From positions 1 through 7,494 of IMG/VR virus record IMGVR_UViG_2534681674_000036: a DNA stretch of 7,494 nucleotides; one strand, written 5' to 3'. Each line of letters starts with the position of its first letter. Within the stretch, counting starts at the first letter, position 1. The notes under the pieces are model-generated. The model did not search any database. It worked only from the letters and a program-made list of their open reading frames with translations, and was not told the origin of the DNA. A program made the position numbers and the translations under genes. Positions 373 to 879 of this stretch are shown here, piece by piece. This stretch comes from a virus. Its lineage: Duplodnaviria; Heunggongvirae; Uroviricota; Caudoviricetes.

Positions 373-879
373 ATGGCAAGCAGAGGCGTAAATAAGGTGA
401 TTATCCTTGGTCGGGTAGGACAAGACCCGGAAGTTCGATACTCACCATCAGGAACAGCGTTCGCTAACCTGACAATAGCCACGTCAGAACAATGGCGAGA
501 TAAAAATACTGGCGAGCAAAAGGAATTGACTGAATGGCATCGTGTTGCTGTATCCGGGAAACTGGCTGAGGTCGTGGGGCAGTATGTGAAAAAAGGTGAT
601 CAGATTTATTTCGAAGGAATGCTGAGAACCAGAAAGTGGAAAGACCAGTCAGGGCAAGACCGTTACACAACCGAGGTTCATGTCGGAATTAATGGCGTGA
701 TGCAAATGCTTGGCGGCATTGGCGACAGCAAACAACAAGCAGCCAGCAGGCAATCACAGAAGCCACAGCAGCAATCATCACCAGCACAACACAACGAACC
801 TCCGATGGATTTTGACGACGATATACCCTTTGCACCAGTAACTCTCCCCTTCCCTCGTCACGCTATTCACGCAATTTAA
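373..879 (+). CDS. ssb: Single-stranded DNA-binding protein (OB-fold SSB) with a 15-aa extension beyond the conserved DDDIPF tail
   Basis: N-terminus [24 protein letters not shown] and [11 protein letters not shown] match E. coli SSB closely. A Q-rich linker precedes the acidic tip [11 protein letters not shown], but the ORF continues [15 protein letters not shown] before TAA at 877-879. Confidence 0.9.

Follow-up and report, generated by a model that had tools for sequence, protein, structure and literature searches.

Why does a phage SSB, a protein that binds single-stranded DNA, continue beyond the peptide with which proteins of its family normally end? In bacteria the free C-terminal ...DDDIPF of SSB acts as a hub that recruits at least 14-17 genome-maintenance proteins, and engineered blocking of this end is severely deleterious. 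The question is raised by a 7,494-nucleotide stretch of phage DNA (positions 1 to 7,494 of IMG/VR record IMGVR_UViG_2534681674_000036; the whole stretch is referred to here as the window), which represents the left arm of a lambdoid prophage and includes an ssb gene. The first-pass annotation of this DNA had remarked that the DDDIPF tip of the prophage SSB is internal, and this is indeed the case: the tip hexapeptide occupies residues 148-153 (nt 814-831) and is followed by GCA CCA GTA and further codons up to nt 876, with the TAA stop codon at 877-879, giving 15 residues beyond the tip. The accompanying arguments were also sound, in that a trivial point mutation does not explain the internal tip and conversion of the GCA codon to a stop does need two substitutions, yet natural alleles with TAA at exactly that codon exist. 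The 15-residue extension proves to be a genuine, old and selected short linear motif that defines a large subfamily of SSBs in the temperate phages of the Enterobacteriaceae, for which we use the term 'capped', and the locus switches between capped and uncapped forms of the protein.

By fold and by tip the window protein is a member of the SSB family that fails one defining feature of that family, the terminal position of the tip. It matches the Pfam SSB model PF00436 over amino acids 6-104 (E=1.6e-36) and scores 166.9 bits with TIGR00621, for which the cut-off is 53.95. Alignment to E. coli SSB (PDB 1eqq; E=6.6e-58), as proposed in the first-pass annotation, runs from residue 1 through the end of the chain at F178 (Phe177 in mature-protein numbering), which pairs with F153 of the query, so that the 15 residues fall outside the canonical end. 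Like E. coli SSB (PF00436, TIGR00621), the protein comprises an OB fold (~75-80% identical over residues 1-115), a disordered linker and an acidic tip, identical over 11 residues; unlike in E. coli SSB, the tip is not terminal but has 15 residues after the Phe, the linker is ~25 residues shorter and Phe60 is replaced by serine. Phe60 is an aromatic residue that contacts single-stranded DNA (ssDNA) in E. coli SSB; its equivalent in the window protein is Ser61 (window 553-555), and serine is also found in the Sf6-type SSB. In a sequence alignment (A1), W41, W55, H56 and W89 are invariant, as are P143, P144, F147, D148, P152 and F153 in the tip region, while the linker from G114 to P143 has no invariant column. 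The conserved W41, W55, H56 and W89 point indirectly to binding of ssDNA as a homotetramer, with the replacement of Phe60 a difference from the E. coli protein. In an AlphaFold 2 (AF2) model of the monomer, residues 115-168, the extension included, are disordered, with a predicted local distance difference test (pLDDT) score of ~30. The model was also checked for docking of the extension on the OB fold, where the tail appeared merely disordered, a result that is uninformative on partners.

The first-pass annotation had asked whether the extension is conserved in related prophages, and it is a family-wide trait that is not confined to one prophage. Phages mEp235 and HK75 have exactly the same protein, and the ssb DNA of mEp235, mEpX2 and HK75 is at least 99% identical (99.2% for mEpX2). 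For the Salmonella phages epsilon34 and g341c the ssb DNA identity is 89.5%, and the 15-residue extension is identical in epsilon34, the only one of the two to have been translated. Among the 80 closest relatives in IMG/VR, chosen by their OB domain alone, 74 had readable genes and 71 of these encode the extension. A 70-nt junction probe, for which full coverage was demanded, found the extended junction in 287 of 5,426 complete E. coli genomes (~5%), where RefSeq names the gene 'ssb'. At the protein level, 112 of the best 120 clusters (90% identity) from a collection of 5.8 billion proteins extend past the tip; some of these hold 600-1,000 members, and the extended clusters come from E. coli, Salmonella, Klebsiella (five species), Citrobacter, Enterobacter, Kluyvera, Pluralibacter and Phytobacter. 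Finally, 32 of the 33 loci returned by a degenerate DNA scan are SSBs, 147-192 amino acids in length and of at least three body types. A sequencing or assembly error, or a frameshift or stop-loss private to one prophage, has only the general rule that SSBs end in ...IPF to recommend it and is vanishingly improbable, as independently isolated phages share the identical sequence, as do hundreds of complete genomes; the presence of the junction DNA in independently sequenced phages and in the 287 E. coli genomes excludes assembly error.

Some observations at the margins of this distribution are worth recording. In one Salmonella cluster of 588 members (P0088) the extension is shortened to 12 residues, the final three being missing. 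The extension DNA of the E. coli type has an exact match of 29 nt in a 3.9-kb contig (L141; JAFADF010000066.1) of an 'Actinomycetes' metagenome-assembled genome, most likely an enterobacterial phage contig that was mis-binned. Other SSB representatives in a library of 50% representatives also continue past ...IPF (P0220, P0302, P0282, P0235, P0331, P0337, P0264, P0301 and P0313), with extensions that begin APIGLQYPALLSVM, GYLGLQYPMLLNCM, APVPFY, APYLSRKGYIV or AQVPYLAGI; some of these are related, but their lengths and C-terminal halves differ. Post-tip extensions may thus constitute a broader class of SSBs.

What distinguishes the extension from a run of incidental codons is the way in which it has diverged. 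Its length is exactly 15 residues in all 34 distinct variants, which conform to the profile [AS]-P-[VI]-[TG]-L-[PQ]-[FY]-P-[RK]-H-x-[IV]-[HY]-[AV]-[ILV]. On a spanning tree of 42 haplotypes, changes in the extension comprise 53.8 synonymous against 11.2 replacement changes (omega ~0.08; approximate P ~1e-20), and the last 10 codons, which were free of conditioning by the search pattern, give 29 synonymous against 8 replacement changes (omega ~0.09). As a control, nearly all changes are replacements when the other two frames are read. Individual alleles illustrate the point: L363 encodes the identical extension peptide with six synonymous DNA differences, and the extension of L367 has nine synonymous changes and one replacement. 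Even the outlier L318 (APVGLQYGKKFMHCI) is unchanged in length and in its first half. The extension is found, moreover, on several unrelated SSB bodies. Conservation at the protein level, fixed length and disorder are features that, taken together, characterise a short linear motif. For the 45 nt, which are near-invariant in E. coli-type phages, an element acting at the level of DNA or RNA was considered and rejected, as diverged alleles vary freely at synonymous sites.

The tip itself has not been released from selection. Across the extended alleles the internal tip has an omega of ~0.08 and is conserved as strongly as the extension, so the tip is not simply silenced; it probably works together with the extension as a single composite motif. 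It had also been proposed that an extension that is common among homologues and has no effect on partner binding would refute the idea. The extension is certainly common, but commonness does not speak against function: commonness together with purifying selection argues for function.

The pattern of conservation bears on a further possibility, that the C-terminal ...R-H-x-I-(H/Y)-A-I is a degradation tag, read by a host AAA+ protease of the ClpXP or Lon type and limiting the level or lifetime of a phage SSB that could otherwise be toxic or poison host replication. A conserved extreme C-terminus, basic and then hydrophobic, on a disordered tail would suit such a tag, but a degron would not account for the proline-rich first half, APV(T/G)LP(F/Y)P, whose conservation is no lower, and the resemblance to ClpX signals is weak. 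We regard a degradation tag as unlikely. The likeness in question is that of RHAIHAI to the MuA-type C-terminal ClpX signal RRKKAI; PVTLPF has a likewise weak resemblance to clamp-binding motifs.

The extension sequence also occurs at the end of a second type of protein. In phages Sf6, N7, IME10 and CurroJimenez the SSB ends canonically at ...NFDDSDIPF, and 9 nt later lies the gene for a 159-amino acid endonuclease (gp26 in Sf6); the last 14 residues of gp26 are SSB extension sequence. In phage Huey, an SSB body of the window type ends at ...NFDDEIPF and is followed by another endonuclease, of 155 amino acids and 47% identical to gp26, with the same tail. In the variants P0021 and L406 the endonuclease ends ...PDE-A-PVTLPF..., and all 15 residues are matched. 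What separates the two kinds of allele is a cassette, 441 nt long in Huey and 447 nt in Sf6, that stands in place of the GCA codon, a net difference of 438 or 444 nt. At the left junction the Phe codon (TTT or TTC) is followed by the cassette's stop codon, a ribosome-binding site and the ATG of the endonuclease gene, whilst the right end reads ...GAC GAG (GAA/GCA) and leads into the common CCA GTA ACT ... TAA. As the cassette carries a stop after the Phe codon, the SSB ends canonically and the endonuclease open reading frame (ORF) reads in frame into the former extension. The window and the Sf6 gp27 SSB/gp26 locus (with those of Huey, N7, IME10 and CurroJimenez) are alike in their erf-ssb-(exo)-abc2 module; they are unlike in that, at the Sf6 locus, the cassette replaces GCA, the SSB is canonical and the tail is part of the endonuclease ORF.

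The Sf6/Huey-type endonuclease, from a family of small, putatively HNH-type enzymes, matches PHROG 2340 'endonuclease' (E=2.6e-47) and has a visible HHCDY...WLCxxCHxxWH motif; searches of the Pfam and NCBIfam models with the endonuclease gave no match. The Sf6-type gene is unannotated in the RefSeq records of E. coli genomes (features 'none'). Endonuclease genes always lie directly after the ssb Phe codon, beside three unrelated SSB body types, and the two types are present in 98 and 10 E. coli genomes, as against 287 with the uninterrupted extended allele. Comparison of tip haplotypes (loci L207-L213, L222-L301 and L302-L381) revealed that the type of endonuclease predicts the tip whatever the SSB body: NFDDSDIPF accompanies the Sf6 type and NFDDEIPF the Huey type, with extended alleles mostly having DFDDDIPF. 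This association, seen in the alleles as they stand, is suggestive of co-conversion or of self-immunity of the endonuclease-bearing allele. A second, unrelated endonuclease family, HNH_3 (PF13392), is represented by gp47 of phage ES18 (L011:2010-2531) and at ~9 other loci; its gene is inserted just downstream of ssb in ES18, and in other phages it separates ssb from the annealase gene. Either side of ssb seems to be a hot spot for mobile genes that encode endonucleases.

Insertion of an endonuclease gene is one of three routes by which the extension has been lost in nature. In a second group of alleles (L303, L311, L313, L319 and L320) there is a TAA at the first codon of the extension, followed by a decaying, frameshifted remnant; these alleles have the unusual tips DDDAPF or DDDTPF. 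In a third (L309, L310, L330 and L337) the 45 nt are cleanly absent, the sequence running ...CCATTT/TAAGGA... into the exonuclease gene. Whichever the route, the SSB always ends exactly at ...PF. That every natural loss allele has this end indicates that the end is functional, and could be taken to mean that the extension is a pro-peptide, with cleavage between Phe153 and Ala154 releasing a canonical C-terminal docking peptide (SSB-Ct) and the extension serving as a device for timing or activation. The internal tip is conserved as in canonical SSBs, and the tail is disordered and accessible, both in favour of such a scheme. Against it, the module encodes no protease, no protease or cleavage motif can be named, and conservation continues up to the final residue, as would sooner be expected of a binding motif or a degron; a pro-peptide is in our view improbable.

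Which of the two states came first, the extended gene or the interrupted one? Four relatives of the endonuclease whose context was examined lie immediately after the ssb stop codon, and their C-termini diverge right after ...KPIYP(D/E)(D/E); more distant members of the family, from Vibrio or Pectobacterium phages, end near ...KPIY. The two endonuclease lineages with the tail differ at many synonymous positions but become 100% identical from CCAGACGAGGAA on. The tail of the endonuclease also tracks the local variant of the SSB extension: that of L406 (...RHTIHAI) equals the extension of L407, an SSB of the neighbouring type, and that of L015 equals the L328/L343 variant (L320 was also compared) but is frameshifted, which is consistent with a relaxed constraint once the tail became detached from the SSB. 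The extension is, in addition, far wider spread and more diverse than the endonuclease. The differing ends of the relatives, the shared tail, the tracking of local variants and the wider spread all argue that the tail is originally a part of ssb and that the cassette entered a gene that was already extended. Insertion rather than deletion is the probable origin of the difference, and whichever the direction, the two allele states are related by the endonuclease cassette.

The converse proposal starts from an ancestor with a canonical SSB and the endonuclease gene behind it: an in-frame deletion, reaching from the ssb stop codon to within 15 codons of the endonuclease stop, would have joined the two genes, with the extension left over as a functionless scar. 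The identity of the extension with the endonuclease C-terminus is what such a deletion would produce, and deletion chimeras are frequent, both SSB::endonuclease (P0011 and P0014) and endonuclease::exonuclease (P0053, P0060 and P0063); phiKp_30 has a decayed endonuclease gene, and because bacterial SSBs generally end in ...IPF the extension must be derived at some depth. The strong purifying selection in the SSB frame, with its many synonymous changes, is contrary to this proposal, as are the occurrence of the extension on many SSB bodies in many genera with no endonuclease nearby, the endonuclease relatives that lack the tail and differ right after ...YP(D/E)(D/E), and the match of the endonuclease tail to the local SSB variant, with its frameshift decay in L015. 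A scar would explain at most a remote origin, its lack of function is largely refuted by the omega of ~0.08, and we give the proposal as a whole little credence. Our first model, a recent deletion of the endonuclease gene that left a neutral scar, was rejected as an account of the present state in view of the synonymous-only divergence and the presence of the extension across genera without the endonuclease. As for the chimeras themselves (P0011, P0014, P0053, P0060, P0063 and P0024), they are fusions of an SSB body to an endonuclease C-terminus or of an endonuclease N-terminus to an exonuclease C-terminus, and the ssb-endonuclease-exonuclease block decays frequently in prophages.

What might the extension do to the hub? 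Here the closest parallel is an engineered one. Addition of a single glycine after Phe177 of E. coli SSB leaves no measurable binding of chi, and the altered protein complements only at slow growth (PMC3045619); DnaG is not bound either (PMC3632105). The pockets of ExoI, RecQ, RecO and chi are alike in being hydrophobic, with basic residues on their flanks for which contacts to the acidic residues and/or the terminal carboxylate have been proposed (PMC3632105, PMC3045619), and binding of Redβ likewise depends on Phe177 of SSB (PMC6393309). The capped phage SSB resembles SSB+Gly (Naue et al. 2011, 2013; PMC3045619, PMC3632105) in that the Phe carboxylate would be blocked, a change that costs the mutant its chi and DnaG binding and impairs it in vivo. 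It is unlike SSB+Gly in that the natural extension consists of 15 specific, selected residues, is carried by a non-essential phage SSB and is known here from sequence. By analogy, the extension would remove the free alpha-carboxylate of the terminal Phe, and the capped SSB would bind ssDNA and fail to engage the classical SSB-Ct pockets, namely those of chi and DnaG and, by extrapolation, of ExoI, RecQ, RecO and PriA. Blocking of classical partner docking is, on this comparison, the most likely consequence of the extension.

One glycine would be enough to block docking, yet 15 residues and the tip are conserved, which argues for a specific partner that would recognise the two together, as a composite motif. 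Extended ssb genes are followed by the exonuclease gene, by abc2 or by other genes, as tabulated for co-occurrence. The adjacent exonuclease had been put forward as a phage-specific partner, but a dedicated role for it finds no support: there are extended SSBs without the exonuclease (HK75, ECP1 and CP-1639) and canonical SSBs with it. Erf was likewise considered as a dedicated partner and rejected, as extended SSBs lie behind either Erf (PF04404) or unrelated annealases of the AAA_24/Sak4 type, and canonical SSBs occur in the same contexts. Since neither the annealase nor the other neighbours are constant where the extension occurs, a conserved host factor, or the SSB itself, is a likelier reader than any one neighbouring phage gene product. 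In its fullest form, the proposal would be that the capped SSB coats phage ssDNA without recruiting ExoI, RecQ, RecJ or PriA, that it offers a new composite docking site, and that a homing endonuclease targeting the tip switches the locus between capped and canonical states; this extended scheme is less likely than not, and we advance it only tentatively.

Viewed as a whole, we favour, with reasonable though not high confidence, a capped and selected motif, a switch between capped and uncapped states that is linked to the cassette, blocked docking and a specific reader. Several points weigh against this interpretation. Its functional half is drawn by analogy from E. coli SSB. The co-occurrence comparison of neighbouring genes yielded no candidate reader and no strict tie to the exonuclease, to Erf or to an adjoining abc2. 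Conservation of the tip is compatible, too, with the extension being removed in vivo, the mature protein then being canonical. Phages without the extension (Sf6, N7 and Huey) are viable, so it must be dispensable for plaque formation. The selection estimates come from a spanning tree of recombining haplotypes, which makes the P values approximate, and the search expression fixed extension codons 1-3 and 5, although the unconditioned codons agree. Lastly, the first extension could go back to an ancient deletion, in frame, of an endonuclease gene, its function being gained later.

The surroundings of the gene are those of a phage recombination module inside a prophage (Table 1). The order of erf and ssb in the window is the same as that of gp32/gp31 in mEp235. 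The TAA stop codon of erf (370-372) directly abuts the ATG of ssb, such that window positions 370-375 read TAAATG, which suggests translational coupling of annealase and SSB. The Erf encoded in the window has the C-terminus ...AQAKCVQVMNIRVNELKQAA (window 250-369). Erf proteins encoded upstream of L322, L363 and L367 and the Sak4-like AAA_24 proteins of L391, L399, L403 and L409 have a similar C-terminal helical module of ~45 residues, with the pattern ...AQE[TV]Y..R..EL..Q.AA; the annealases are unrelated, and all lie upstream of extended SSBs. The module could be a shared domain, exchanged between annealase families, that binds the SSB or a partner. At the far end of the window, the attachment core GCTTTTTTATACTAA between the integrase gene and a host gene places the prophage at a lambda-type attachment site.

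Table 1. Features of the window and the corresponding cassette genes in sister phages
Feature	Position	Strand	Basis or remark
erf, 3' part; Erf-type single-strand annealing protein	1..372	+	PHROG 1097 'Erf-like ssDNA annealing protein', E=9.6e-50
ssb; extended ('capped') phage SSB, 168 amino acids + stop	373..879	+	PF00436; RefSeq labels identical copies 'ssb'
OB-fold ssDNA-binding core, amino acids 1-113	373..711	+	PF00436; AF2 pLDDT ~80-87, expected beta-barrel strands
Q/S/P-rich disordered linker, amino acids 114-142	712..798	+	AF2 pLDDT ~30
Internal acidic tip, amino acids 143-153, homologous to SSB-Ct docking peptide	799..831	+	Aligns with last 11 residues of E. coli SSB
15-residue post-tip extension, amino acids 154-168	832..876	+	Conservation, fixed length; matches C-termini of Sf6 gp26 and Huey endonuclease
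Phe153/Ala154 codon boundary	831..832	+	Insertion point of Sf6/Huey-type cassette; end of natural extension-loss alleles
DnaQ-like 3'-5' exonuclease gene (Rv2179c-like)	888..1436	+	Pfam PF16473, E=2.8e-73
abc2, anti-RecBCD gene; completes recombination module	1453..1749	+	Pfam PF11043, E=4.7e-61
Accessory genes DUF5405, Ead/Ea22, DUF551	downstream of abc2		
Lambda-type excisionase + integrase	4810-6076 (int gene 5006-6076)		
Lambda attachment core GCTTTTTTATACTAA	6150-6164	-	Between int and pectinesterase-like gene
Pectinesterase-like host gene	6211-7494		
Sf6 gp26	L005:1984-2463		Absent from window; site 831/832
Huey endonuclease	L006:1978-2445		Absent from window; site 831/832

How does this locus compare with systems described previously? 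Free-standing phage homing endonucleases (HNH/His-Me finger) are similar in their presence or absence at a fixed site beside a conserved coding sequence, in their linked flanking haplotypes and in their decayed copies; the Sf6/Huey-type ORF is unlike them in having no stop codon of its own and ending in host-gene sequence. A second point of comparison is HhaK, the SSB of phage HK620, whose last six residues are needed to stimulate the cognate annealase Sak4, so that there too the C-terminal tail of a phage Rec-module SSB mediates a phage-specific interaction (PMC5928155). HhaK differs from the window protein in being of an unrelated SSB type that ends in a terminal NDYPPF with no post-tip extension. 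In its passages on lambdoid recombination modules, a 2025 survey describes lambdoid Rec-module SSBs as not having been studied experimentally, and those passages do not mention the extension (PMC12315714). A one-line remark in the GenBank record of Sf6 points out '14 contiguous amino acids identical to E. coli SSB'; literature searches directed at the peptide string, at extensions of phage SSBs and at homing endonucleases associated with ssb found no earlier description except this note, and the peptide occurs in no paper of the library searched.

The significance of the capped SSBs lies in the picture of a widespread, natural SSB subfamily that would block the hub end with a conserved peptide whilst the tip remains under selection. 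Capped, endonuclease-interrupted, stop-codon and 45-nt-deleted alleles are found on the same SSB bodies and so constitute a ready natural experiment, a set of alleles with which to study how phages keep their recombination intermediates apart from the SSB interactome of the host, and that may reveal a new reader of the SSB tail. The finding also bears on the design of recombineering systems, where matching of annealase and SSB tail limits portability, and on defence systems that sense phage SSBs.

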